A stretch of DNA of 64,000 nt, from assembly GCA_965662895.1 (NCBI GenBank), contig CBFIJH010000001.1:157994-221993 (forward strand), given 5' to 3'. The position numbers were made by a program, and so were the translations under genes. The notes under the pieces are model-generated. The model saw nothing but the letters and a program-made list of their open reading frames with translations, was not told the origin of the DNA and did not search any database. Positions 3,197 to 41,209 of this stretch are shown here, one piece after another. The first letter of the stretch is position 1. Each line of letters starts with the position of its first letter. The DNA is from Candidatus Poseidoniaceae archaeon. GTDB taxonomy: Archaea > Thermoplasmatota > Poseidoniia > Poseidoniales > Poseidoniaceae.

Positions 3197-6100
3197 ATGG
3201 CCAGAGGCTCACCCGCCGTTGCATGTACCTTGATTCTGATGATGATTGCTTCAACCTGCTTGGTTGCACCAACCCAGGCACAATCAAGCGACATTGAAAA
3301 CATCGAAGTACTGCACACAGCAGTCAACCCTGACAACAACAAAACCTACCATCTCCTATCAGCATCATCTTGGGAAAACGCCGCATACAAAGCACGTTCA
3401 CTCGACGGATACCTAACGACCATCGACGACGTTGAAGAAAACACGTGGGTTTACGAGACCTTTGCCAGTTTTGATAATCAAAGTCGTCACCTGTGGATTG
3501 GGTTAAACGATGTCCAAGATGAGGGGATCTATCGTTGGCACGATGGGACACCGTTCTTGTACCGCAACTGGGGCGTTGACCAACCAACCGGAGGAGAAGA
3601 TTCCGACTATGTCCACATCGCTTCAACCAACATGGGCAACATCATGCCACAAACATGGAACGATTTAGAAAACAATCCTGAGTACTTCCCAGTCTACGGC
3701 GTAGTTGAAGTCGGTCGAGGTGCTGATTTCTCCCTGAGATTTGATGGGCATCATGATCACATCATCATCGACCATGATGAAGGACTCACACCAAATGGTT
3801 CCCTTAGCATCGAAGCAACCATCAAAGCAAGCAACATCGATGGCATCCGTTTTGTTACGATGAAAGGTGATTATGGATGGGGAATGTACCTCACCGACGG
3901 CGCCATTGGTTACGCCTCCGAGTACAGCCTCTCAAGACATCCTACGTCCAACATGAGCATTACTGAAAACACGTGGCATACAATCGGTGTCGAAGTCACC
4001 GAAGGCGTTGGCGGAATGTTCACCATCGACGGAATACCTGCAGGAAACATTTCGGCAGAAGATGCCAACATTCCAGAGGGTGATTTCGGTTCCAACGATT
4101 GCTACACCTCTGGTGACTCCTGCGACGAATTGTACATCGCCAGAATGGGTGCCGGTTGCGATTGTTATCATTTCGAAGGCATCATCGATGATGTCTCCAT
4201 TTCATTCTACGAAAACGACATTTGGGAGCCAGCAAGTCATTGGACTTTCTGGGAAGGTGAAGGAAGCGATACCGGCGATGCATTGAACGATGGAGCCGTG
4301 AATCGGATTGGAATTATCGACGGTGCTGACTGGGTCATGCCCGATGGCTCAATTGTCGCACAAGCATTGGAACTGCCGAACGATGAATTCCTTGTTTTGA
4401 ACGATATTCAGCAAGGTGACACACTTCTCTTTTATGCTGAACTTGATGAATACACCTACATGACGGACATCGCAATTTATTCTTGGTCTGAAATGTTTTA
4501 CGATGATTGGGATTATGAAGGGGACATGCTGTTCGATGCCTACGTTGGCTACGACCGGATTCCCGCACCTTGGGATTACGACATGGAACTAACAAGTTAT
4601 TGGGGCTCTGTTTTCAATTCATGGACTTGGCCAGAGTACGACGTTATGTGGTACTCCATCGTTGCCAACGAAGACATTGAAGAGTTGGAAATTCTTGCTT
4701 CCTGGGAAGTCGCCGCCGCCCCACCGAGTCTTGATGAGATGACAGAGTTGTACAATGGGGTGCCAATCCCATCGCAAAACATCCAATCCGATCGAAACAG
4801 TTACGAGGCTTCTCTCGAGTATTATTACGTAAACGTTACAGATTCGCTTACAGAATTGAAAATAGAAACGTATGGAGGTAAAGGGAACATTGACCTCACT
4901 CTCTCCTCTGGCGGGCCAATCGATCCAAATTACTACTACTATTATCCAGAACCTTACTACTACGACGAGTACAGTGAAAACGGTATGCAACAAGACAATG
5001 TCGCGTGGTCCATGAACGATGGAAACGACGAAGAAGTGAACCTCTTCGATGTCGAACCTGGAATTTACTACATCACAGTGTTTAGTTATCGCAAGGCTTC
5101 AGATTTTACCATAGTTGCCGATTTCACATATGCACCGGAAAACGCTGACCCATCAACAGCCATTGAACTCCAACCCGGGATTGCATACGGGCCAATGAGT
5201 GGTTATGATGGTCTTGACCAGTATTTCTTCATCGATGTACCAACCGGAACCGAACGACTTGAGGTAGATCTTGACGATGGTTTCGGGGAAGCAACGTTGC
5301 ACATGCGATATGAAAATACGCCGACCGCGAGTGAAGCCGATCACCATTCAGGTGCACCAGGTGCTGGTGATAAAATCGGTTTCAACAATCCGACACCTGG
5401 CAAGTGGTACATTCTCCTCGACTCTGAGAGCGTGTTTAGTGGCGTTTCTATTACAGCTTCTTTCGAAGACCTCTATGTTTGGGAATACGATGGCACACCG
5501 ATTGAATTGTTCAATGATGAAGACGTTCACGGACTAAGCGCACCAGCCGGAGAGGAACTCTACTTCTATGTCGATCTTGAATCCCGTGCTGAAGAATTGA
5601 TTATCACCACCTACGATGGAGAAGGTTCCCTCTACATCACTGCCGATGGTGAAATTGACTACGAAGATATCTTTGGGTTTGAGGAATTTGATGAGTTCGA
5701 ATTCTTTGAAGAAGACATCTTTGGTGAAGCATTTACTTCGTACGGGCAAGGAACCTCACACGATCTGTACATTTACTCACCTGCTGCAGGACGTTTCGAC
5801 ATCACCGTCGTTGCTGAAGACGACTTTTCTGATGTCTCAATCGTGGCTTATTGGAAAGAAGACACGCGAGAAAAGCCCGAGCCTGAGCCGCCTACCATTC
5901 TCGACCCCGATGACATCTACTCATGCGATTATGAACTCGAGGAGTTCTTTGTTGAAATGGATACAAACGGCAATGGGTTGTTGAATGCCGATGAATTCCG
6001 CCGATCTGGCCCTCCGGAAGGAACAGAGTTTTCGGATATTGATACCACTGGAGACGGCATGATTGAGTTCAATGAAGTCCTTGCCTTCGCCTGCACTTGT

Positions 6101-30024: not shown

Positions 30025-30366
30025 ATGACCGATGAGGGCCCAAGTCTCGATTCCTTCCTTCGCCACCTTCAGACAGAGGTCGAAGCGGCAAATGAGATTA
30101 CAGACAAAGCGGAGCGAAACAATCGATTGTTGCAACTCGAGTCATCCATTCAAGAAGCCATCATTTTTGCGAATCGATACAAGGAACTCAAAAATCAAGG
30201 TGTTGATCCGCTTCTTCTTGTCGACCCTAAAATACAGCAGGAACGTCCAGCTCCGCCAGCAACAAAAGGCCAATCAATCCTCTTGGGATCATCAACATGC
30301 GAAGCATGTGGCAAACTGCTTGAAAACGACTTGGACTTCTGTCCAGCCTGCGGTGCAACGAAGTAA
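30025..30366 (+). CDS. Small protein with a C-terminal zinc ribbon.
   Basis: The CEACGKLLENDLDFCPACG zinc ribbon at the C-terminus; 113 aa. Confidence 0.4.
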   Translation: MTDEGPSLDSFLRHLQTEVEAANEITDKAERNNRLLQLESSIQEAIIFANRYKELKNQGVDPLLLVDPKIQQERPAPPATKGQSILLGSSTCEACGKLLENDLDFCPACGATK

Positions 30367-31139: not shown

Positions 31140-32309
31140 ATGGTCGATGTTGCAATGGTCGGTGCTAGCCAAACAAAATTTGGCAACCATCCTCTTGGAC
31201 TCAAAGGGATGTGGTCTGAAGCAATGGAAAAAGCGATGCAAAGTGTTGATTTCGACTTTCATCCAACTCAAGTTGATGAAGCCTTCATTGGAAGCATCGC
31301 GTTTGGAGGATCACAATTAGGCAACACTGCCGCCCTTCTCACTGAGCATTCAGGAATGGAAGGCGTGAGCGTTCGGCGCGTTGAAAATGCATGTGCATCA
31401 TCAGGCTTTGCTCTCCGAGATGCATGGATGGCTATCAAAAGCGGACAAGCAGATGTTGTTGTGGCTGGTGGAATCGAGAAAATGAACGATTTATCAGCAT
31501 CAAGAAAACGGTATTGGCTCGGCGTTTCTGGCGACACTGAATGGGAACGCCTCGCAGGTCTAACATTTCCTGGAACCTATGCACTCACAGCACGACGCTA
31601 TTTTCATGAATTTGATTCCACACACGATGACTTGGTTCACGTTTCGGTCAAAAACCACATGCATGGGTTCGACAATGAAGTCGCTCACCTACGGAAACAG
31701 GTGTCATTCGAAAAGGCAAATTCCGGATTTATGGTCGCAGATCCTCTCACGCTCTACGATTGTTGTCCAACATCCGATGGTGCATCTGCCGTGATTTTGG
31801 TGGCAGATCATCTCGCTCACAACTTCACGGATACACCTGTCTGGGTCAAAGGCTCTGGCGCTGGTTCGGATCACCTCGCTTTGCATGATCGCCCAAGTAT
31901 CACAGAACTCCGGGCGACGCAGGCCGCTGCATCCAAGGCATACAAAACCGCAGGTGTCAATGCATCTGACATCGATTTGGCAGAAGTGCATGATTGTTTT
32001 ACCATCGCTGAAGTCCTCGCCACTGAAGATCTTGGCTTTGCATCTCGTGGGCAAGGTGGACGATTTGCTCGTGACGGAGAAGGACGGAGAAACGAAGGTC
32101 GTGTTGCCATTAATGCCAGCGGAGGTCTCAAGTCAAAAGGACACCCGCTTGGTGCAACAGGCACGGGTCAAGCTGTTGAAATCTTCAAACAACTGAGGCA
32201 TGAGGTTGAACCAAATCGCCAAATCAGAGATGCTGAGTTGGGTCTGACACACAACGTCGGTGGTTCGGGTGCAACCTGTGCGGTGCACATTTTTGGGAGG
32301 GAGCGCTGA
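31140..32309 (+). CDS. Archaeal thiolase (acetyl-CoA C-acetyltransferase, SCP-x type).
   Basis: MVDVAMVGASQTKFG, an active-site Cys region (ACASSG) and a C-terminal GHPLGATG motif. Start moved to 31140. Confidence 0.8.
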   Translation: MVDVAMVGASQTKFGNHPLGLKGMWSEAMEKAMQSVDFDFHPTQVDEAFIGSIAFGGSQLGNTAALLTEHSGMEGVSVRRVENACASSGFALRDAWMAIKSGQADVVVAGGIEKMNDLSASRKRYWLGVSGDTEWERLAGLTFPGTYALTARRYFHEFDSTHDDLVHVSVKNHMHGFDNEVAHLRKQVSFEKANSGFMVADPLTLYDCCPTSDGASAVILVADHLAHNFTDTPVWVKGSGAGSDHLALHDRPSITELRATQAAASKAYKTAGVNASDIDLAEVHDCFTIAEVLATEDLGFASRGQGGRFARDGEGRRNEGRVAINASGGLKSKGHPLGATGTGQAVEIFKQLRHEVEPNRQIRDAELGLTHNVGGSGATCAVHIFGRER

Positions 32310-33112
32310 TGACAATTCAACACATTTCCAATGCCGACGGTGACTTTGCATGCAGCATGTACGGACCAGAATGGGCGGGACCGGATGGGGACAGGCTCAC
32401 CTTGGCTCTCGCACTGCTGAAGCATTTAGGTTCAGGAAAGGTCCAATTGCATTCCTTCGAAAATCACCTTGTGTTCCAGCCAAGCGTTGGCATTTCAGAA
32501 ATTATAGAGTCAGCAACAGATTGGAACATTGCTGAGGATTCTGGCATGTATCTCCACGCCCATGCTGATTTGTTTCTCGTGGCGATGAGTACATCGAGCG
32601 AGGAACCGGTTTGGCCTCAATTTGATTCGATTGAATATTCGAAAGAATTGAAAAATGAGTTGGAAGTTCAATGGAAAAAAGAAATTTCTGGAGTGAGTCA
32701 GGGCGCATATGTATCACAGTCACAACACATGATTTCAACACCTTCACGACTCGGACTATTGGCTCAGCGGCATCAAGAACACCTCGTTTGGCCACCTCGC
32801 CAACTCAATGAAGATGGAGAACGTATTGAAACTGCAACGACGAAGTTGTCCGAGTCAGCTACAATCTTGACTTGGACGCGACTGAGTCCCGCTGGAGCAC
32901 CTTCTGAGTTCTCTGAACGAGCACCAATTCTGGATGGTGTTGCAACCGTTTTGGTCGCTTTTGATCAAGGACCGAAAGGGGTTTTTATGTTAGCAGACGA
33001 TGAAAAAGGGACACCGAGCATCGGATCTCGAGTATGTTTCGAAATCCGTCGATTGTATGGACAGGATGAAATGATTCATTATGGCTTGAAAGCGCGACTC
33101 TTAAATTCCTAA
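32309..33112 (+). CDS. DUF35-like OB-fold protein with a long N-terminal extension (thiolase partner).
   Basis: Start overlaps the thiolase stop (TGATG). The C-terminal ATILTWTRLSPAGAPSEF...GVATVLVAFDQGPKGVFMLADDEKGTPSIGSRVCFEIRR resembles the DUF35 OB fold. Confidence 0.5.
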   Translation: MTIQHISNADGDFACSMYGPEWAGPDGDRLTLALALLKHLGSGKVQLHSFENHLVFQPSVGISEIIESATDWNIAEDSGMYLHAHADLFLVAMSTSSEEPVWPQFDSIEYSKELKNELEVQWKKEISGVSQGAYVSQSQHMISTPSRLGLLAQRHQEHLVWPPRQLNEDGERIETATTKLSESATILTWTRLSPAGAPSEFSERAPILDGVATVLVAFDQGPKGVFMLADDEKGTPSIGSRVCFEIRRLYGQDEMIHYGLKARLLNS

Positions 33113-33159
33113 ACGAGAGGATAGAAGCCTTCATAGAAAGTCTGAGGAGTGGGTGGCGT

Positions 33160-34176
33160 ATGGCTGGTTTTGGGGGTATCCGGAAAGGAAAAAAAGAAGC
33201 GGCAGATAATCTGAGCATCCAAGAAGATGGAGATTGTGCTCGCTGTGGAGGAGAAAGCCAACCATCAACGATGGAAGGCTATCTCGCCTGTACCCGCTGT
33301 TCATACGAGTGGGCAGATCCAAATCATGTGTCAAAGAAGGTGCGTGGACCGCCTCCGAATCACCGTCGCGATTCTGAATTAATCAATGAATTCAAGGCTG
33401 AAATGGAACGCGGCGACCTCAAAGGTGTACTCGGCGTCGATTCCAATCTCTCTGCTGAGCAAGAACAATCTCTGAAACGTCTCGAAGACAAATGGATGAG
33501 CGGCATGCAGGGTCATTACAATGCTGCATCTGAAGATCGGAAACCTCTGATGATTAGTTTTGATGATGATGACAATCTTGTTTCGACCGAGGTTGCTGCT
33601 TTGACAATCGTTTCAAATGGATTCGATGGAGGTGAAGAAATTCGACTCGAGTATCCTGGAATTGGAACCGAATTTTATGCCTACAACGAGCGGAGCCCCA
33701 CAGGTTGGAAACGTGGACGAAGCAGTGAAGAAACCGCCCGCTCGATCACCAACGTGATCAACAGATCCTCTCGGTTGGTCTATGCCAATCTTGAGGGAAG
33801 TCGAATTTCCTTTGAGTTACGCGACGACAAACTCAAACCCGAGTCGCTTGTACTGTTCGTTGACGACCCAGGCGGTCAGGACATCGTCGCAGAAAAAGGA
33901 GGAGTCATCCTCGATTTCCGCGACGTCAACGTCCTTGATGATTACAGGAATGTAATCGCTCTTGTTCTTGAAGATGGCATCATCTCTCCAAGCGAGGATC
34001 AAATGATGTGGGTTATGCGTCAGCAATTAGGAATTACGGAAGAACAACACGTTACGTTGGTGCAAGAAATCTTTGGGGCAAACGCTCTCAAAGAATGTCC
34101 AAATTGCAACAAGATGGCAGAATTGTATCCAGAATACTCTGCATGGTACTGTCAGCCTTGCGAAAGTTGGCTTTGA
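33160..34176 (+). CDS. Acidic protein with N- and C-terminal zinc ribbons; first gene of the actin-like module.
   Basis: N-terminal CARCGG...CTRCSYEW and C-terminal CPNCNKMAELYPEYSAWYCQPCESW ribbons, with an acidic middle region. 338 aa. Confidence 0.5.
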   Translation: MAGFGGIRKGKKEAADNLSIQEDGDCARCGGESQPSTMEGYLACTRCSYEWADPNHVSKKVRGPPPNHRRDSELINEFKAEMERGDLKGVLGVDSNLSAEQEQSLKRLEDKWMSGMQGHYNAASEDRKPLMISFDDDDNLVSTEVAALTIVSNGFDGGEEIRLEYPGIGTEFYAYNERSPTGWKRGRSSEETARSITNVINRSSRLVYANLEGSRISFELRDDKLKPESLVLFVDDPGGQDIVAEKGGVILDFRDVNVLDDYRNVIALVLEDGIISPSEDQMMWVMRQQLGITEEQHVTLVQEIFGANALKECPNCNKMAELYPEYSAWYCQPCESWL

Positions 34177-34245
34177 TTCTTGTTCTATAGAATATTTCGG
34201 ACTATTGTTTTCCGATGAATTTGGCGAACTTTAGCGAGGGATGCT

Positions 34246-34253
34246 TCATAAAG
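34246..34253 (+). promoter_or_regulatory. TATA-like box TCATAAAG ending 32 nt upstream of the actin-like gene ATG.
   Basis: Same octamer and same spacing as upstream of psmA (13439-13446). Confidence 0.3.
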
Positions 34254-34284
34254 TGGACGGTATTCCCATAAATTGGCGAACGCT

Positions 34285-35310
34285 ATGGCAGAAGACGTAT
34301 TGTATATTGGAATTGATTTGGGAACCTTTCGTTCAGTCATGGTCTCCTCTGGTAACCACGAAGTAGAGGAACTCACAGTAATTGGAACACCAAAAGATCA
34401 GATCGCACGCAATTTCCTGAAGAGAGATGTTCTTTTTGGAGAAGAGGCATTGAAAAACCGACTTGCGTTGAATCTCTTCCGACCATTGGAACTCGGTGTC
34501 ATCAAAGACACACCAGAGGACCGTCAATTCATTGCCCACTTCATCACCCACTTGATTGGACTCTCTGACCCTGAAGAGCACGATCGAGTGGTTGCAGTCA
34601 TTGGTGCGCCAGCTGAAGCAAGTCACGTTGACAAAACGGCGATTTTTGATGCCGCTGCCGGCAGTGTCAACGCAGCCATGATTATTTCTGAGCCATTCGC
34701 TGTCGCCTACGCACTCGACATGATTGAGCACACGCTTGTCATCGATATCGGTGCTGGAACAACAGACCTTTGCCGTGTCTACGGAACGATTCCAGGTCCA
34801 GGCGACCAAATGCACACTGGCTATGCTGGCGACTACGTCGACGCTCAAATCATCAAGGAGGTTCAATCAAAGTACAACGGTGCTCAGATTACAAAAGACA
34901 TGGCACGACGCTGGAAGGAACAGTATTCCTTTGTGTCCACATCAACTCCGGATGATCCAATCATGGTCGACTTCTCCATCGAAGGGAAGGCCATGAATCT
35001 CGACATCACGGATTGCATACAGAGGGCTTGCGAGTCCATTGTCGACCCCATTGTCGAAAATGTGAAGCAACTGATCGCTGACTCCAACCCTGAATATCAC
35101 GACCAATTCCGCCGAAATATGGTTCTTGCCGGTGGCGGATCTGGTATCCGTGGTCTCGGTGCACTCATCGAGCGCCGACTCTCCGACATGGGCGATGTCA
35201 GCGTTCACGTTGTTGATGACCCAGTTCGACTCGGTGCAATGGGTGGTCTCCGATTGGCTATGGAAGTTCCAGAAGACATGTGGAAGAACCTCACCCTCGC
35301 ATCGCGTTGA
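34285..35310 (+). CDS. Actin-fold ATPase of the MreB / Ta0583-like family (archaeal actin homolog).
   Basis: Phosphate-1 motif LYIGIDLGTFRSV, phosphate-2 motif LVIDIGAGTTDL and adenosine motif VLAGGGSGIRGLGALIE (compare MreB LTGGGALLRGL). About 340 aa. Start set at the ATG at 34285 rather than the upstream TTG. Confidence 0.75.
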   Translation: MAEDVLYIGIDLGTFRSVMVSSGNHEVEELTVIGTPKDQIARNFLKRDVLFGEEALKNRLALNLFRPLELGVIKDTPEDRQFIAHFITHLIGLSDPEEHDRVVAVIGAPAEASHVDKTAIFDAAAGSVNAAMIISEPFAVAYALDMIEHTLVIDIGAGTTDLCRVYGTIPGPGDQMHTGYAGDYVDAQIIKEVQSKYNGAQITKDMARRWKEQYSFVSTSTPDDPIMVDFSIEGKAMNLDITDCIQRACESIVDPIVENVKQLIADSNPEYHDQFRRNMVLAGGGSGIRGLGALIERRLSDMGDVSVHVVDDPVRLGAMGGLRLAMEVPEDMWKNLTLASR

Positions 35311-35319
35311 GTTGTTAGC

Positions 35320-36000
35320 ATGAACAAGGGACTTGCCATTACTGGTGGAGCCTTCTTGTTTGTTTCGCTGTTCGTCATCGTGGTCTCCTTCTTCAGCGTC
35401 CTCGATTATCGTCCAACAACTGAAAACATCCTTCATGATACGTCCAAAGATGGAACATCGTTCGAATACGATGGATCGAGCATTCCAATGGAAGTGTATG
35501 CAATAGGAAATCTAGTCAATTGTGACAATTTCAATCTGACCATCACGGGGTATATGGGCGATATCTTTCTCCAAGACTGTGTTTCTGGTACAGATTACCC
35601 AGGCTACACGTATCTCGGGGATATCGTGGATACTGCGGCTGCTGGCAATTACACGATTACTGCTGAGGAAAACATTGTCATCGTTGATGCAAGTGAGATT
35701 ATCGTACCCGCCTTTGGTATGTGCGGAGGAAGTGTTTGCTGCTTGCTTGGTCTTCTTCTCCTCCTTGTCAGCCTTGTCACTGGAAAGAAGACGCCTCAAG
35801 TCGTGCTTTACCAACAACCAGGTGCACAGATGTATCAACCGAACCAAACCACTGTACAGCAATACGTTCCTGCTGCTCCATCTGGCCAACAGCAACAGAT
35901 ACAACCTGTCATTCCCAGCCAACAGCCATCTCAAGGTTTCGTGCCGATCCATCAAACCGAGTTTGAAGGATTTTCCTTTGAACACAAAAAAGACGATTGA
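35320..36000 (+). CDS. Bitopic membrane protein: N-terminal TM helix, Cys-containing extracellular domain, second TM helix and a cytoplasmic Gln/Pro-rich tail.
   Basis: TM1 GGAFLFVSLFVIVVSFF, TM2 CCLLGLLLLLVSLV and the tail QQPGAQMYQPNQTTVQQYVPAAPSGQQQQIQPVIPSQQPSQ. It starts 10 nt after the actin-like gene. Confidence 0.5.
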   Translation: MNKGLAITGGAFLFVSLFVIVVSFFSVLDYRPTTENILHDTSKDGTSFEYDGSSIPMEVYAIGNLVNCDNFNLTITGYMGDIFLQDCVSGTDYPGYTYLGDIVDTAAAGNYTITAEENIVIVDASEIIVPAFGMCGGSVCCLLGLLLLLVSLVTGKKTPQVVLYQQPGAQMYQPNQTTVQQYVPAAPSGQQQQIQPVIPSQQPSQGFVPIHQTEFEGFSFEHKKDD

Positions 36001-36006
36001 GAAATC

Positions 36007-36714
36007 ATGATTACAAAAGAAAGCAACGTAGTAATCTTGACAGGTGCTGGCGTTAGCGCAGAATCGGGAATTCAAACGTTTCGGGCTTCGGATGGGCTTT
36101 GGGAAAACCACCGCATCGAAGAGGTAGCAACACCTGAGGGGTGGGAAGCCAACCCCAAACTTGTGTGGAATTTTTACCAACAACGGCGAAGACAATTGTT
36201 GGAAGTTGAGCCAAACCCTGGACACTTCGCTCTTGCTGATCTGGAAAATCATATCGAGCATTTTCTTCTTGTTACGCAAAATGTTGACAACTTGCATGAA
36301 CGTGCTGGGTCGAAGAATCTTATCCATATGCACGGTGAACTGGAAAAACTTCGATGCGAGCATTGTGGGCGAGTTGAAACAATGATGCAAGAGGACCATT
36401 TTGGGGATGAGCTTGTTGCGTGCAATGGGTGCGGAAATCATGTTCGGCCACACATCGTTTGGTTCAATGAAATGCCTTTTGAATTGGCAAGAATCTACGA
36501 GGCAATAGCAGAGTGTGACATCTTCATCGCAATCGGAACAAGCGGACACGTTTATCCTGCAAGTGGATTCTTACAAAGAGCGCGTCTTGCTGGAGCTCAC
36601 ACAATCGGGATCAACCTGGACCCTCCTGAAAACGTGTTTTTCTTTGATGAATTTATCCAAGGAAAAGCGGGTGAAATCTTGCCTATGCTCGTTAAAAAAT
36701 GGTTTGGCAATTAA
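36007..36714 (+). CDS. cobB: NAD-dependent protein deacylase, Sir2 family.
   Basis: GAGVSAESGIQTFR, VTQNVDNLHERAG and the Zn site CEHCG...CNGCG. Confidence 0.85.
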   Translation: MITKESNVVILTGAGVSAESGIQTFRASDGLWENHRIEEVATPEGWEANPKLVWNFYQQRRRQLLEVEPNPGHFALADLENHIEHFLLVTQNVDNLHERAGSKNLIHMHGELEKLRCEHCGRVETMMQEDHFGDELVACNGCGNHVRPHIVWFNEMPFELARIYEAIAECDIFIAIGTSGHVYPASGFLQRARLAGAHTIGINLDPPENVFFFDEFIQGKAGEILPMLVKKWFGN

Positions 36715-36781
36715 TTGTTGGTCAGCGATTGGAGTGTTGAGGTTGAGCAATGTTTTTTCTTCTCGGCTTACAGGTGAACCC

Positions 36782-38974
36782 ATGGCAGTTCGACCGTTGT
36801 TTGTGTTCGTATCAATTGGCCTGCTGATTGCTTTGTCAGGAACGACGCTCGTTGAAGCGCAAGAACAGGACCAGTCTGATGAAATCGTACGAATCGTGAT
36901 GCTGCCTCCTGAAGCAGAAGCCACGGGAATGTTTGTCGACGAGCAAGGTCGATTTTTTGTCAACGCCATGCATCCTGACCCAGACGACTACAAGGCAACC
37001 ATCGGCGTCATCAACGGTATTGATTGGAACAGCCTCTCTAATACGATTCCTTCACTCGATTCATCGAGTCAACCGAGTGATGTTTGGCATGGAATTCGAA
37101 CGAGTAGTGGGGAGTATCAAGTTCTTCTCCAATCAGGTGATTTGATGACGGATGGTACGCTTGCTGGCGGAATTTATTCTGTCGATGACGGTCAACAAAT
37201 TCTCCTAAGTGAAAAACCAGATTTCAATGCATTCGTTCCAACTGAAGATAATGGGAGCAGAGGGTTCCTCTACACTGCATGGGAAGATCGACCGGCCGGA
37301 CTGAGTCAAATCCAAATCGAGTGGAACATGTCGTCCAATCAATGGGATGTTCTCGATAGTCAGATGCTCAATCTCTCTAAAATAAATGGGGCTTGGGTTC
37401 TGTGTTTCGGGAGTGTGAGCCCATGGGGTACACCGTTGTTCTCAGAAGAATTGTATTTTGACGATACTGAAAACTGGAACAATCCGAATTTCCGGTACCA
37501 TTCCGATCAATTGCGACTCGAGCGTTACCTTGGTTACTATCCAAATCCGTACGATTATGGATTTATCATCGAAATGAACGAAGCGACCACAACAACGCCA
37601 GAACTTGTTCGACATCTTGCTATGGGCCGATTTTCACACGAAAATGCCCTCGTTATGCCGGACCACAAAACGGTTTACTTGACCGATGATGGATACGAGA
37701 CGGTGTTGTTCAAATTTGTTGCAGATGTTCCGGGGGACTTGACGGAGGGAACACTGTTCGCTGCGAAACTCATTCAAGATGGTTCATGGGACGCATCGAT
37801 CACAGGCTTCGATACCGAATGGATTGAGTTGGCTTCAGCTTCAAATGCGGACGTCCAATCTTGGATTGACGAATACGATGGAATTTCCACAACCGACTAT
37901 GTGGAAGGAGAAAATGCATACATTACGGACGAGGAGATCAACAATTGGGCTGAGGGACGTTTGAACCAAGACCTGAACAACGATGGAATCGTCGGATACG
38001 CTCTCGATGACCGTGTCGCATTTCTCGAATCACGAAAGGCTGCTGCGGCGATCGGGGCGACCGATGAATGGAACAAAATGGAAGGTGTTGCATTCAACGA
38101 GAATGCTCCCGAGCACATGTATCTGGCCATGTCCAATATTGGCAATGCTATGACAGATGGTCAAGGCGATATCGACGTCTCGCTTAACTCCTGTGGAATC
38201 GTTTACAGAATGGCTACTGACAACCAATGGGATGTTCACCGAATAGAACCGGCCATTGTTGGTGGACCGTATCTCTCTTCAGCGGAATACAAGTGCAGCA
38301 TCGACAATCTCGCAGGACCTGATAACATCCTTGTCCTCGACGATGGAAGCGTATTGGTTGGTGAGGACACCAGATATCATAAGCACAATATGGTTTGGCT
38401 TTGGCGAGAATTCATCAATCCTGTCGTTGAAGTCGATGAACAAATTCGAATCACAACGTTAAATCTTTCAGACAATCCTTCCTCCTTGGTTTCTCCATGG
38501 ACATACTCATACCAAGCTGTAGTTGATGATCTGGCCTTTGATACCACCTACACAGCAATCGTTGTTGCAAAGAACATCAGCAGTGGGGAATGGAGTGGTG
38601 TTTGGTGGTGGAACGATATTTCTGAAACCGGTCAACAATACAATCTTCAAATTTCTTTGAACAGAGGATGCTATATGATCGAAACTACCCTTTACGAGAA
38701 AGACGACTTGGATGTAGATGCTGGGAATGCGACAGTTCTCTCAAGTGTTCAAAGAAACCTCACGGTAGGCAATGGGGATTGTGTCGATGGAACCTATACT
38801 GAAGCGGTTGAAGTCGAATCAGTTCCTAAAGACACAATCGAATCAAACAACGCTCCAGGCTTTGCTTTTACTCTTCTCAGTGCTTCCATTTGTTTGGGAT
38901 TGTTCTTCGCAAATCAGGAAAGAGAACATACTTGCAACAACAACCAAGTTCAAGAGCAACCACCAATTGAGTGA
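36782..38974 (+). CDS. Secreted beta-propeller-like protein (possibly DUF839/PhoX-like) with a PGF-CTERM-like C-terminal anchor.
   Basis: Signal peptide MAVRPLFVFVSIGLLIALSGTTLVEA; start set at 36782 because the upstream frame overlaps cobB. The C-terminus reads NNAPGFAFTLLSASICLGLFFANQEREHTCNNNQVQEQPPIE, i.e. PGF + TM helix + a 20-aa acidic tail. Confidence 0.55.
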   Translation: MAVRPLFVFVSIGLLIALSGTTLVEAQEQDQSDEIVRIVMLPPEAEATGMFVDEQGRFFVNAMHPDPDDYKATIGVINGIDWNSLSNTIPSLDSSSQPSDVWHGIRTSSGEYQVLLQSGDLMTDGTLAGGIYSVDDGQQILLSEKPDFNAFVPTEDNGSRGFLYTAWEDRPAGLSQIQIEWNMSSNQWDVLDSQMLNLSKINGAWVLCFGSVSPWGTPLFSEELYFDDTENWNNPNFRYHSDQLRLERYLGYYPNPYDYGFIIEMNEATTTTPELVRHLAMGRFSHENALVMPDHKTVYLTDDGYETVLFKFVADVPGDLTEGTLFAAKLIQDGSWDASITGFDTEWIELASASNADVQSWIDEYDGISTTDYVEGENAYITDEEINNWAEGRLNQDLNNDGIVGYALDDRVAFLESRKAAAAIGATDEWNKMEGVAFNENAPEHMYLAMSNIGNAMTDGQGDIDVSLNSCGIVYRMATDNQWDVHRIEPAIVGGPYLSSAEYKCSIDNLAGPDNILVLDDGSVLVGEDTRYHKHNMVWLWREFINPVVEVDEQIRITTLNLSDNPSSLVSPWTYSYQAVVDDLAFDTTYTAIVVAKNISSGEWSGVWWWNDISETGQQYNLQISLNRGCYMIETTLYEKDDLDVDAGNATVLSSVQRNLTVGNGDCVDGTYTEAVEVESVPKDTIESNNAPGFAFTLLSASICLGLFFANQEREHTCNNNQVQEQPPIE

Positions 38975-38977
38975 ATT

Positions 38978-40507
38978 GTGGGTCAGAAATCGCTCTCAGA
39001 ATTGCGGTGGCAATCTCGTTTTCTTGATGAGACTCCTGGAGATACGGAGGTGGGTGGTCAACCTCGACAAGTTCCAGGCGTATGCTGGTCAAGGGTTGAG
39101 CCAACCCACGTTCCAAAACCAGTGTTGCGTTTGTGGTCGAATGAAATGGCTCAATCCCTCAACCTGAAGAAAGGAGAACCTACAGTTCTTGGAGGAAACC
39201 AAGTGGTAGAAGGCATGGATCCATACGCACAAAGGTATGGAGGACACCAATTTGGGAATTGGGCAAATCAGCTCGGAGACGGTCGAGCCATCACACTCGG
39301 TGAAGTGGATACGGGAACGGAGGTGCTCGAACTGCAATTGAAAGGGCCAGGGAAAACACCGTATTCTCGTTTTGCAGATGGTAAGGCGGTCTTGCGCTCC
39401 TCAATTCGTGAATTTCTTTGCAGTGAAGCCATGCATCACCTTGGTATTCCCACAACACGAGCCCTTTCGTTGGTCACAACAGGAGAACATGTTGTTCGTG
39501 ATGTCATGTATGATGGAAACCCTGCCCCTGAACCCGGAGCCATTGTTTGTCGCGTTGCTCCAAGCTTCATTCGTTTTGGTTCCTTTCAGATTCATTCCAT
39601 GAACGGTGACAAGGAAACGTTGCAAAAACTAGTTGATTACACCATTAAGCATCATTTTCCTCAACATAGTTCATCGGATGAAGAAGGAATCGTCAAGTGG
39701 TTGAACCAAGTTGCTCAGGAAACAGCCAACATGATAGCGCATTGGATGCGTGTTGGATTTGTCCATGGTGTCATGAATACCGACAATATGTCCATCCATG
39801 GCCTAACCATCGATTATGGACCGTATGGATGGATAGAAGATTACAATCCAAATTGGACACCAAACACCACAGATGCACGCACGGGCCGTTACCGATTTGG
39901 TCAACAAGCACAAATTGGGGCGTGGAATCTTGCCCGACTGCTTGAATCGATAAGTCCACTTCTTGAACACCCTGAACGATTGTATGAATGCTTGGAGACG
40001 TACTACAATGCATACGAAGAGCAGAACAATTTGATGTGGATGCAAAAACTTGGACTTCGAGAATTCAAGGAAGATGATGCTGAATTGGTACGAAGCCTCA
40101 CATCCAATCTTCAACTGGTCGAAACGGATATGACGATTTTCTTTCGCCTGTTATCATCCATTGATGAACCAGAAATCACCTCCATCCATTCGGCGTTTTA
40201 TGATGTTGATTCCATACCAACGGCCGAATGGAATCAATGGCTAGAGGCTTGGTGGACGCGTGTCGAGGGTCAGCCAGATCGCAATGCAATGAAATCAGCC
40301 AACCCAAAATACGTCCTTCGAAACTGGATGGCCCAACTCGCTATCGATGCTGCGGAAAAGGATGATTACTCGGTTGCAGAAGAATTGCATGAACTACTAA
40401 AATCTCCATACGATGAACACGAAAAGCATGAAGAGAAATGGTTCCAAAAACGGCCAGAATGGGCACGCCATCGGGTTGGATGTTCGATGTTATCGTGCTC
40501 GAGTTAG
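38978..40507 (+). CDS. selO: Protein adenylyltransferase SelO (YdiU/UPF0061).
   Basis: YAQRYGGHQFGNWANQLGDGRAITLGE and LKGPGKTPYSRFADGKAVLRSSIREFLCSEAMHHLGIPTTRAL are near-invariant SelO motifs. GTG start. Confidence 0.85.
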   Translation: MGQKSLSELRWQSRFLDETPGDTEVGGQPRQVPGVCWSRVEPTHVPKPVLRLWSNEMAQSLNLKKGEPTVLGGNQVVEGMDPYAQRYGGHQFGNWANQLGDGRAITLGEVDTGTEVLELQLKGPGKTPYSRFADGKAVLRSSIREFLCSEAMHHLGIPTTRALSLVTTGEHVVRDVMYDGNPAPEPGAIVCRVAPSFIRFGSFQIHSMNGDKETLQKLVDYTIKHHFPQHSSSDEEGIVKWLNQVAQETANMIAHWMRVGFVHGVMNTDNMSIHGLTIDYGPYGWIEDYNPNWTPNTTDARTGRYRFGQQAQIGAWNLARLLESISPLLEHPERLYECLETYYNAYEEQNNLMWMQKLGLREFKEDDAELVRSLTSNLQLVETDMTIFFRLLSSIDEPEITSIHSAFYDVDSIPTAEWNQWLEAWWTRVEGQPDRNAMKSANPKYVLRNWMAQLAIDAAEKDDYSVAEELHELLKSPYDEHEKHEEKWFQKRPEWARHRVGCSMLSCSS

Positions 40508-40510
40508 AAT

Positions 40511-41209
40511 CTATTCTTCTTCCCATCCATGACGTTGGGCAAGGTCACGACTTACCAGCGGATTGTTGCAATGCGGACATGTATCCTTTGGGGACAACAA
40601 GTCTGGGCGGATAGCCAAGACCGCCATGCATGTTGGACATGCGGCGAGCATTTCACCATCCTCTAAGTCAGCCTCCGGCGTTGGTACAAACGTCGTATAT
40701 CCTTGTCGATAGAGAGGGGAGAAGTGATAACGGACGCGCTGAAAGGAACTGTACGATGCATAACCCATGATGAGCATAAACAACAAACCTCCGACCGCCC
40801 CAGCAAGAACCGAATACAAATTTATCAAAAACAACAAGAAGAATATCACAGATGCGCAAGCAATAATCAGTGCTGCAGGCCAATATGCCCAACCGTTCCT
40901 AGAGCGATACGAAAACCACGTTGAAGTTGTGATAAACAAAGGAACTGCCCAAATCAGTAGCGCACCTCGTCCGATGTATGTTTGTGCGATACTTGCAAAG
41001 TCCCAAGCGATGAGGACAATGATGAGACTATCAATCGCTAGGATAAGTGAAGTGCTTCGATGGGTTTGATCAAACAAAGCAGACAACGTTGCGGAAGCAC
41101 GTTGACCTCCGGAACCTGCCAAGACGATGTCATCGCCTCTGTTGCCTGCCATGCACCCACCAATCAGCCACCTCACATGAAGGCTTGTGAACAGCGAAGA
41201 AGTCTTCAT
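40511..41209 (-). CDS. Polytopic membrane protein with a C-terminal cytoplasmic zinc ribbon.
   Basis: Five or six TM helices, then CPTCMAVLAIRPDLLSPKDTCPHCNNPL. Start set at the internal ATG at 41209, because the longer upstream frame is Cys-rich junk antisense to coaBC. Confidence 0.45.
   Translation of the reverse strand: MKTSSLFTSLHVRWLIGGCMAGNRGDDIVLAGSGGQRASATLSALFDQTHRSTSLILAIDSLIIVLIAWDFASIAQTYIGRGALLIWAVPLFITTSTWFSYRSRNGWAYWPAALIIACASVIFFLLFLINLYSVLAGAVGGLLFMLIMGYASYSSFQRVRYHFSPLYRQGYTTFVPTPEADLEDGEMLAACPTCMAVLAIRPDLLSPKDTCPHCNNPLVSRDLAQRHGWEEE

Follow-up and report, generated by a model that had tools for sequence, protein, structure and literature searches.

A MamK-family actin and its constantly linked zinc-ribbon neighbour in Marine Group II archaea

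Which kind of actin is carried in the core genome of a planktonic marine archaeon, and which of the genes around it belong to the same system? The locus that raises this question lies in a stretch of 64,000 nucleotides, all of it referred to here as the window, on the chromosome of a member of Poseidoniales, the Marine Group II archaea. This group is generally held to outnumber all other planktonic archaea in the surface ocean; to our knowledge its members are uncultured and their cell biology is unexplored, and we are not aware of any report of magnetotaxis in such a host. The initial annotation had read three genes as a self-contained membrane-coupled cytoskeletal module and considered it undescribed, and the literature that we searched indeed gave no description of this module or of any Marine Group II actin. 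The open reading frames do stand where they had been placed, co-directional on the plus strand, with gene A at 33160-34176 (338 aa), gene B at 34285-35310 and gene C at 35320-36000 (226 aa), and all three are real genes, with intact homologs across many independent assemblies. As judged by comparison of related sequences, however, the conserved unit is the pair of A and B and not the three genes together.

Gene B (34285-35310, plus strand) encodes a MamK-family actin-like ATPase of 341 aa, according to NCBIfam, PDB and homolog evidence. Read from the TTG at 34273 it would have 345 aa; its homologs, of 341 aa, begin at the conserved ATG, which here is at 34285. The phosphate-1 (IGIDLGT, aa 8), phosphate-2 (DIGAGTTD, aa 154) and adenosine (LAGGGSGIRGL, aa 281) motifs, by which an actin-fold ATPase had been recognised, were all located and are intact, as is the SEPF catalytic region. 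By far the top NCBIfam model is MamK (NF040964, 357.7 bits, E 5.3e-107), with an alignment that covers aa 10-341 (query of 345 aa) and positions 1-331 of the 335 in the model, and a score below the curated cut-off of 400 bits. The best PDB matches are also MamK structures (5ljw, 5jyg and 5ljv; 252-256 bits in full-length alignments at 38% identity), and the second-best match is BeeR (8r2n, 150 bits), which likewise is the second-best NCBIfam model (215.4 bits, cut-off 530).

A closest relation to MreB and Ta0583, which had been supposed for B, is ruled out by the NCBIfam and PDB scores. Solved MreB structures reach 31-62 bits (62 against 256 for MamK), the MreB models of NCBIfam stay below their cut-offs (NF010539, 99 against 293 bits; TIGR00904, 88.5 against 365.75), and the broad Pfam model MreB_Mbl (PF06723) is passed at 99 bits with a cut-off of 27. 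The Pfam family of Ta0583-type archaeal actins (PF21522) is missed, at 22 bits against 27.8, and neither Ta0583 nor crenactin is found among the best 60 of 121 PDB matches (E<=10). Pfam Salactin is passed at 59.2 bits (cut-off 27.1), more weakly than MreB_Mbl and far more weakly than MamK; NCBIfam salactin (66.1 bits, cut-off 400) and Pfam Volactin (30.7 bits, cut-off 35) fall short, and no match to the ParM family appears in NCBIfam or among the same best 60 PDB matches. We also rejected an Hsp70 or sugar-kinase type, a grouping that would have spoken against a filament: Hsp70 scores about 19-22 bits, MamK 256-358, and B sits instead in a filament-forming actin family. By these matches B is a polymerising-type actin whose nearest family is MamK. 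Public annotation pipelines name its homologs 'rod shape-determining protein MreB', a label that is misleading.

Relatives of B are encoded in 235 stretches of a species-representative genome collection, and viral carriage was dismissed after a search of IMG/VR gave no match. Across Poseidoniales the actin keeps 76-99% identity; in the same loci the values are 57-96% for A, 70-91% for a thiolase and 33-67% for a DUF35-like gene. We inspected 84 loci, the best 80 of the 235 relatives and four others. In every one of the 81 with enough upstream DNA, A stands directly 5' of B on the same strand, at a distance of 51-156 nt, and the pair spans both families of the order, including Thalassarchaeaceae (L081-83) and the lineage whose actin is 76% identical (L084). 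The flanks of the pair vary, with three types of neighbour upstream and at least 11 downstream, which indicates that it survives rearrangement on either side; every other adjacency around it is broken somewhere. Such order-wide synteny (81/81) is what would be expected for a dedicated partner. The syntenic association that was to be looked for thus holds for A with B in every related genome examined, whereas it fails for the trio, since C is confined to one sub-lineage, with about 27 loci. A wider neighbourhood is likewise conserved in both families (IPK, a small zinc-ribbon protein, KptA and thiolase, then CoaBC and a tRNA synthetase), so part of the A-B adjacency is possibly inherited gene order. 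In the window the genes annotated around the pair encode IPK, KptA, thiolase, Sir2, a PhoX-like protein and SelO, and related loci add CoaBC, a class-II aminoacyl-tRNA synthetase and transketolase; no magnetosome genes (mamJ, mamI, mamL, mamB and others) are among them, and no mreC, mreD or rodZ was found in the neighbourhood.

Gene A (33160-34176, plus strand), defined by its open reading frame, homologs and synteny, encodes a protein that has zinc ribbons at its two ends, just as had been proposed: it has exactly eight cysteines, arranged in two CxxC...CxxC ribbons (C26/29/44/47 and C313/316/331/334), and all eight are invariant across 37 homologs. Its description as acidic does not set it apart (pI 4.65, against 4.74 for B and 4.18 for C), and we discarded an 'acidic adaptor' character as a MamJ-like trait, which is uninformative because all proteins here are acidic. 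The protein begins with a basic peptide, MAGFGxIRKGRREAxxNL (aa 1-18, 33160-33213), which by conservation and pLDDT is a predicted disordered segment, R8, G10 and N17 being invariant and pLDDT below 50 over aa 1-23. The N-terminal C4 ribbon follows (aa 24-52, 33229-33315), delimited by its invariant cysteines and modelled as three short strands. Next comes a stretch that is strongly conserved and apparently unstructured in a low-confidence model (aa 101-140, 33460-33579), with W112, G115, M116, G118, N121, R127, P129, F134, D135 and D138 among its invariant residues and pLDDT below 50 for aa 114-135. Regions conserved and yet predicted to be disordered show a pattern typical of docking motifs, and we regard aa 1-18 as a candidate docking peptide and aa 101-140 as a candidate region that may fold on binding. 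The remainder consists of an alpha/beta domain (aa 146-250, 33595-33909) and a mobile module made of an ENT/TerB-like helical hairpin and the C-terminal C4 ribbon (aa 259-338, 33934-34173); this module also occurs in AsnC-type regulators and a kinase, and in three genomic contexts of genes that share it no actin is near.

The distribution of A is narrow. It has 280 homologs, and at 50% identity all full-length forms fall into one cluster among the 1.84 billion representatives searched, the remaining profile matches being fragments or proteins that have the C-terminal 85 aa in common only; remote relatives beyond Poseidoniales were sought in the same search and dropped on that result. Members with a named source come from Poseidoniales, Thermoplasmatota or 'Euryarchaeota' MAGs, and we have met A nowhere outside MAGs of Poseidoniales or of unclassified marine archaea. 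It belongs to no Pfam or NCBIfam family (permissive thresholds gave noise-level ENT, TerB and zinc-ribbon matches), and a profile search of the PDB, from which a known family might have emerged, returned nothing beyond a weak likeness of the N-terminal ribbon to ribosomal protein L37Ae (E 0.004, 19 bits). We found in A no resemblance to a known actin-binding protein or to a recognised DNA-binding fold. That the proteins flanking the actin have no recognisable homology to RodZ or MreC, as had been stated, agrees with our searches, in which A and C match no characterised family.

The expression signals of the two genes look separate. About 27 nt 5' of the ATG of A lies a TATA-type promoter-like element, TTCATAGAAAG (33130-33140, plus strand), a putative signal that keeps this distance in the Poseidoniaceae loci we looked at; it is a variant of TTCATGAA, an element found 5' of many genes in the window. 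Repeat search and conservation outline a putative control region between A and B (34218-34281, plus strand), in which a 12-nt direct repeat, AAWTTGGCGAAC, at 34218-34229 and 34270-34281 flanks the promoter-like TTCATAAAGTG (34245-34255); no iteron array or centromere-like repeats were found there beyond this one pair. Conserved in the Poseidoniaceae loci inspected are TTCATAAGGTG about 37 nt 5' of the actin ATG and GGCGA(A/G) just 5' of it, and their conservation suggests that B is probably under its own promoter. With apparently separate promoters, co-regulation of A and B is not required. A special promoter common to A and B was considered and rejected, the motif not being enriched in the window; what the two genes share looks like a variant of the general genome element TTCATGAA.

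Gene C (35320-36000, plus strand), found in one clade only, encodes a two-TM membrane protein of 226 aa, in which TM1 (aa 3-28) and TM2 (about aa 133-155) enclose a beta-rich outside domain and a disordered tail of 71 aa follows. The topology initially assigned to it, with the N-terminus inside, a TM segment, an outside domain, a second TM segment and a cytoplasmic Gln/Pro-rich tail, stands; the outside domain is about 104 aa and not the ~140 aa suggested. This domain is a generic beta-sandwich with two N-x-S/T sequons and few basic residues. The tail (aa 156-226, 35785-35997, plus strand), delineated from composition, pLDDT and conservation, is 37% Gln+Pro with pLDDT below 50 and carries the motifs PQVVxxQQP...YQPNQTTVQQY and, at its C-terminus, F(D/E)(G/P)FSFEHKK; Q165, Q166, P167, T177, T178, Q181, Y182, F218, S219, F220, E221 and K223 are invariant. 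Whether such a tail might bind actin is speculation. Pfam, NCBIfam and solved structures provide no characterised family for C, and the search for a known family by sequence and structure was closed without a match; its 86 homologs are mutually similar.

Among the 84 loci C occurs in about 27, all from the window's own sub-lineage. It is missing even from locus L002, where the actin is 98% identical and Sir2 lies directly 3' of it, and among the loci examined it is absent from other genera and from the sister family, though these have both A and B. Between B and D lies a clade-specific insertion (35320-40507: C, Sir2, PhoX-like, SelO), which begins with C. The distance from B to C had been given as 10 nt and taken as a sign of co-translation; it measures 9 nt, and such spacing is ordinary in this compact genome, in which C and Sir2 are 6 nt and PhoX-like and SelO 3 nt apart. 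No promoter-like element was found between B and C, and in the window's genus C is probably co-transcribed with the actin. At most it is a genus-level accessory.

Beyond the insertion, on the minus strand, lies gene D (40511-41152), encoding a multi-pass membrane protein of about 213 aa, for which no Pfam family was found; its C-terminal zinc ribbon is cytoplasmic, and the chain ends in EEE. In 28 loci, among them those of the sister family (L081-L084), D follows the actin immediately, tail-to-tail, and the window's D is 34-42% identical to the Poseidoniaceae members and about 28-29% to those of the sister family. From this arrangement D appears to be the actin's ancestral downstream neighbour, displaced in the window by the insertion.

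Compared with known systems, the closest likeness is to MamK, both as a sequence family and in the logic of a non-enzymatic accessory protein dedicated to the actin, as MamK has in MamJ/LimJ and McaA/McaB; the differences are an archaeal host, housekeeping genes as neighbours and the score under the family cut-off. McaA is a membrane protein, comparable in this to the possible role of C or D. McaA and McaB change MamK dynamics (PMC13170167). In the searches of family models and solved structures, A, C and D showed no similarity to anything characterised. BeeR, the three-stranded tubular actin of Verrucomicrobiota, is likewise a MamK-related actin whose host is not magnetotactic; with MamK it shares 25-30% identity, and its N-terminus is extended by 30-50 disordered residues (PMC11929497), whereas B starts at the phosphate-1 motif without an extension and scores far below the BeeR cut-off. 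The haloarchaeal Salactin and Volactin are archaeal actin homologs as well, and Salactin is reported as most closely related to MamK (PMC10746226); B is far more distant from them than from MamK, and the passages on Salactin consulted make no mention of an A-like partner. ParM-ParR-parC and crenactin-arcadin resemble the locus in having an actin-like filament gene beside a small lineage-specific partner gene, and in ParR and arcadin-2 a short partner peptide docks on the actin. The actin there is of another family, our locus is chromosomal and of the core genome with no centromere iteron array, and A is unlike any solved sequence or fold, those of ParR and the arcadins included. The likeness to MreB with RodZ, MreC and MreD ends at the MreB_Mbl match, since the MreB models remain below cut-off and the partner genes are not nearby, and we know of no peptidoglycan elongasome in archaea.

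From our analysis it would be logical to suggest that Poseidoniales possess an order-wide MamK-family actin filament with A as a dedicated partner of a novel family, C being no part of the general system, and we hold this to be rather probable. That all three genes make up one self-contained membrane-coupled module, in which B is the filament, A a soluble adaptor and C a transmembrane linker, now seems improbable. The 9-nt spacing without an intervening promoter-like element, the constant position of C in its ~27 loci, its N-in two-TM topology with two sequons and few basic residues outside, and the invariant terminal FSFEHKK of its disordered tail, a motif that could dock on a filament, all speak for a link to the actin; against this, L002, the other genera and the sister family keep A and B but lack C, the homologs of C are only 86 and all alike, C opens a clade-specific insertion with Sir2, PhoX-like and SelO between actin and D, and equally short gaps separate genes that have no obvious functional link.

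There is also a modest chance that the adjacency of A and B is merely inherited order in a slowly rearranging core, A having an unrelated job, for instance that of a zinc-ribbon regulator or of a protein that binds RNA or DNA, and the actin acting alone or with partners encoded elsewhere. The neighbourhood common to both families, the promoter-like element of each gene, the recurrence of the C-terminal module in AsnC-type regulators and a kinase and the faintly L37Ae-like ribbon would all fit this account, but the other adjacencies do break while that of A and B never does in 81 loci, and A is seen solely in the lineage that has this actin. Salactin has a role in DNA partitioning. The description of this related archaeal actin as close to MamK (PMC10746226), together with the gene pair of actin and adaptor, the two ribbons, basic N-terminus and weak nucleic-acid-binding (L37Ae) likeness of A, and the 12-nt repeat on either side of the actin promoter, may point to chromosomal DNA segregation of the ParMRC type, the actin pushing or pulling DNA and A binding it at a centromere-like site. 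We think this unlikely: a parC-like iteron array was not found, the adaptor gene is upstream and not downstream, B lies outside the ParM family and A has no recognised DNA-binding fold.

For the favoured pair of filament and dedicated partner we propose the following scheme. B, as a MamK-family actin of the Marine Group II core genome, would most likely polymerise with ATP into cytoplasmic filaments, as MamK does, because of its family membership and intact nucleotide-binding motifs. A would serve as the filament's adaptor or assembly regulator, comparable to MamJ for MamK or ParR for ParM, docking on it by way of two conserved stretches that lack predicted structure (aa 1-18; about aa 101-140), and the alpha/beta domain and terminal zinc ribbons of A may hold a cargo or a second filament. 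A magnetosome is an unlikely cargo; our guess would be the chromosome or else a complex associated with the membrane. C was acquired recently within the insertion and may tie the filament to the cell surface in the window's genus. More tentatively, the whole can be pictured as an order-wide MamK-type cytomotive system that, with A as its novel-family partner, positions or segregates a cargo such as the chromosome or a membrane-bound structure, with C and perhaps D as envelope couplers; C would then act in one genus and D perhaps ancestrally.

The actin, kept in the core genome at 76-99% identity across the order, shows that an actin-based system is under strong constraint in Marine Group II. 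It extends the MamK actin lineage to archaea for which no magnetotaxis is reported, and bears on the origin and spread of this lineage, be it through vertical inheritance or through inter-domain transfer. The known accessory proteins of prokaryotic actins are few (MamJ, ParR, AlfB, Alp7R and the arcadins), and A, invariably linked to its actin and restricted to one lineage, is therefore a concrete new candidate, one that would be open to test by heterologous expression.

Three co-directional genes are located on the plus strand of the window: A (33160-34176, 338 aa), which encodes a double zinc-ribbon protein, B (34273-35310 when read from a TTG), which encodes an actin-like ATPase, and C (35320-36000, 226 aa), which encodes a membrane protein. 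Actin homologs are 341 aa long and start with MAEDVLY at a conserved ATG, the equivalent of which lies at 34285. The physical description of these genes in the initial annotation is correct in ORFs, motifs and topology apart from small corrections: the gap between the actin and C is 9 nt rather than 10, the outside domain of C is shorter than stated (about 104 aa, against about 140), and the acidity for which A was singled out (computed pI 4.65) is not unusual beside 4.74 for B and 4.18 for C. Source names of the database and genome-collection relatives of A, B and C alike point to Candidatus Poseidoniales, also known as Marine Group II, and the flanking genes in the window (isopentenyl phosphate kinase-like AA_kinase, KptA, thiolase, Sir2, SelO) are typical archaeal housekeeping ones. 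Beside KptA, a 107-113-aa protein with a C-terminal zinc ribbon and a weak DUF7575 match (window 30025-30366, plus strand; L081 2615-2938; L084 3772-4104) is kept in both Poseidoniales families.

All three motifs of an actin-fold ATPase, phosphate-1, phosphate-2 and adenosine, were found in B by sequence inspection, as had been claimed. The proposed closeness to MreB and Ta0583 has to be given up in favour of MamK, which is the top NCBIfam model (357.7 bits, E 5e-107, full length), with BeeR at 215, MreB at 99 and salactin at 66 bits. Among solved structures, three MamK entries match over the full length with 252-256 bits and 38% identity (128 of 333 aligned positions), against 150 bits for BeeR and 31-62 bits for MreB, and none of the best 60 of 121 structure matches is Ta0583, crenactin or ParM. 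Eukaryotic actins and Hsp70 reach only about 17-23 bits in the same comparison, and a grouping with Hsp70-type non-polymerising ATPases, which the initial annotation had considered as the result that would speak against it, was rejected. On the NCBIfam and structure scores we place B in the MamK branch of filament-forming actins, but use 'MamK-family' or 'MamK-like' for it and not plain 'MamK', since its score stays slightly under the curated NCBIfam cut-off (357.7 vs 400 bits) and no magnetosome genes were found among its annotated neighbours; because the locus is devoid of such genes, the magnetosome is also an unlikely cargo. The protein is strikingly conserved: its best 120 database relatives are 76-97% identical, and of the 235 stretches that encode a relative in a species-representative genome collection the best 80 loci show 90-99% identity. 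Poseidoniales actins at 92-98% identity, with archaeal neighbours, occur also in MAGs labelled Rhodobiaceae, Salipiger bermudensis and Salinimicrobium (L007, L029, L067), and these bacterial labels probably reflect misbinning in public assemblies.

Gene order was compared in the best 80 of the 235 loci (L001-L080), to which three loci of the sister family Thalassarchaeaceae (L081-83, actin identity 81%) and one of a distant lineage (L084, 76%) were added. Of these loci, 81 extend far enough upstream to be judged, and by the automatic criterion 80 of them have A as the immediate 5' neighbour of the actin in the same orientation, at a distance of 51-156 nt (median 108). In the lone exception, L074, the coding sequence of A is broken over two frames (4904-5897), as it is in L068 (4906-5899); we favour assembly frameshifts as the probable cause over pseudogenisation, which brings the adjacency to 81 of 81. 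The neighbour on the 5' side of A is DUF35-like in 58 loci; 16 others have a different thiolase there and two have KptA in opposite orientation, while at least 11 unrelated gene families follow the actin; with the flanks varying on both sides, the A-B pair is the sole adjacency that is never broken. Across the same loci A is 57-96% and the actin 76-99% identical. In the window, the gene upstream of A (32309-33112) shares one base with the thiolase that precedes it and has no Pfam match; judging by its position, it stands at the expected place of the DUF35-type scaffold of the archaeal thiolase/HMG-CoA synthase complex, and it evolves fast (33-67% identity vs 70-91% for the thiolase).

The presence of a zinc ribbon at each end of A is confirmed: its eight cysteines all fall within two CxxC...CxxC ribbons (aa 26-47 and aa 313-334), and 37 homologs keep every one of them. 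Searches of Pfam and NCBIfam assigned the protein to no family, and a profile built from the 37 homologs and searched against 1.84 billion representative proteins returned one full-length cluster at the 50% level, the remaining matches being fragments or proteins which share only the last ~85 aa. In the predicted structure (mean pLDDT 72) a basic, conserved and disordered N-terminal peptide is accompanied by the first ribbon, weakly similar to ribosomal protein L37Ae, then by low-confidence helices, a stretch of strong conservation that is yet unstructured (aa 101-140), a confident alpha/beta domain (aa 146-250), and finally ENT-like helices and the second ribbon. Structure comparison relates the alpha/beta domain to outer decoration domains of flagellin, FliD and phage tail sheath/nozzle proteins, and no known actin-binding protein was found to resemble any part of A. 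The C-terminal 85 aa, a TerB/ENT-like helical hairpin with the zinc ribbon (33934-34173, plus strand), are a mobile module, which recurs in AsnC-type HTH regulators, a Ser/Thr kinase and other proteins (P0377, P0383, P0390, P0395, L087 812-1921), one of its carriers having a Thermoplasmata label; none of the three carriers checked in genomic context has an actin nearby.

The third gene behaves differently. The topology attributed to C is borne out: two transmembrane helices flank a beta-rich outside domain, and a disordered tail of 71 aa with 37% Gln+Pro follows. The ectodomain is modelled with confidence as a beta-sandwich; it has two cysteines that are conserved and carries two N-x-S/T sequons, and the tail motifs, including the C-terminal FSFEHKK, are invariant. 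Only 86 homologs are detectable (42-74% identical). The synteny expected for all three genes in related genomes stands for A and B but not for C, which is found 9-14 nt 3' of the actin only in the window's own sub-lineage (about 27 loci, actin at least 95% identical), and is absent from all other genera and from the sister family among the loci examined. Most loci of these other groups have no co-directional ORF after the actin at all. C is likewise missing from L002 (actin 98% identical), where Sir2 follows the actin at 26 nt. In 28 loci from both Poseidoniales families the actin is followed tail-to-tail by D, a conserved, unannotated membrane protein (~190-210 aa, 4-5 TM, cytoplasmic C-terminal CPxC...CPxC zinc ribbon, acidic EEE end; L027 7029-7601, L081 7024-7650, L084 7069-7704), but in the window D is found at 40511-41152 on the minus strand, 34-42% identical to Poseidoniaceae copies and 28-29% to more distant ones. 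Accordingly, 35320-40507 is an insertion specific to the clade, which separates the actin from D, its ancestral neighbour, and comprises C as its first gene, a deacetylase of the Sir2 family (36007-36714), a secreted PhoX-like protein (longest ORF 36515-38974) and SelO (38978-40507). D could have an ancestral role as membrane partner of the actin, or be no more than an old neighbour. The short actin-C gap, taken initially as a sign of coupling, is no special evidence, since gaps of 3-9 nt are the rule within the insertion (C-Sir2 6 nt, PhoX-like-SelO 3 nt). The longest PhoX-like ORF begins within Sir2 and shares its last 200 nt; judging by a hydrophobic stretch that looks like a signal peptide (MAVRPLFVFVSIGLL...), the true start may lie near 36806.

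In the Poseidoniaceae loci inspected, TTCATAAGGTG is conserved before the actin gene, about 37 nt from the ATG, and TTCATAGAAAG before A, about 27 nt from its ATG. Both resemble TTCATGAA, seen some 20-40 nt upstream of many window genes, where (T)TCATGAA recurs before start codons (e.g. before 11338, 12681-, 29131-, 30367-, 31116) and CATGAA is the commonest hexamer of upstream regions. This motif may serve the genome as its TATA-equivalent promoter element, and we take TTCATAAGGTG and TTCATAGAAAG for ordinary promoter elements and not a special shared signal, A and B probably being under separate promoters. Neither C nor Sir2 has a promoter-like element of its own, and both probably share the transcript of the actin, a reading which for Sir2 in the window's genus is supported by its place directly after the actin in L002. 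A 12-nt direct repeat, AAWTTGGCGAAC, occurs on both sides of the actin promoter; no iteron array was found at the A-B region.

From our analysis, the best-supported reading is an order-wide two-gene system, in which a MamK-family actin filament is accompanied by A, which would serve as its dedicated and novel partner, with the conserved disordered stretches of A as the most plausible docking sites; the logic matches that of MamK-MamJ, ParM-ParR and crenactin-arcadin. The membrane-coupled module of three parts, put forward in the initial annotation, is weakened by the narrow distribution of C and its arrival with the insertion. The ectodomain and the invariant tail motifs of C would suit a surface-to-cytoplasm linker, and a genus-level accessory role of C is possible. 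That A and B stay together merely as inherited gene order is made less plausible by the variable flanks of the pair and by the restriction of both proteins to the same lineage. A DNA segregation machine of the ParMRC kind is possible, although it has neither a centromere array nor a recognisable DNA-binding fold on its side.

An actin system of Marine Group II was not described in the literature searched, whose coverage was incomplete, in agreement with the earlier suggestion that the module is undescribed. MamK-related actins are already known outside magnetotactic bacteria, namely BeeR, which has only 25-30% identity to MamK (PMC11929497), and Salactin, which is reported to have MamK as its nearest relative among actin subfamilies (PMC10746226), and B is therefore a new subfamily within a known kind of actin. 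Apparently new are protein A, with its invariable linkage to the actin, and the occurrence of the system in an abundant, uncultured archaeon of the ocean.
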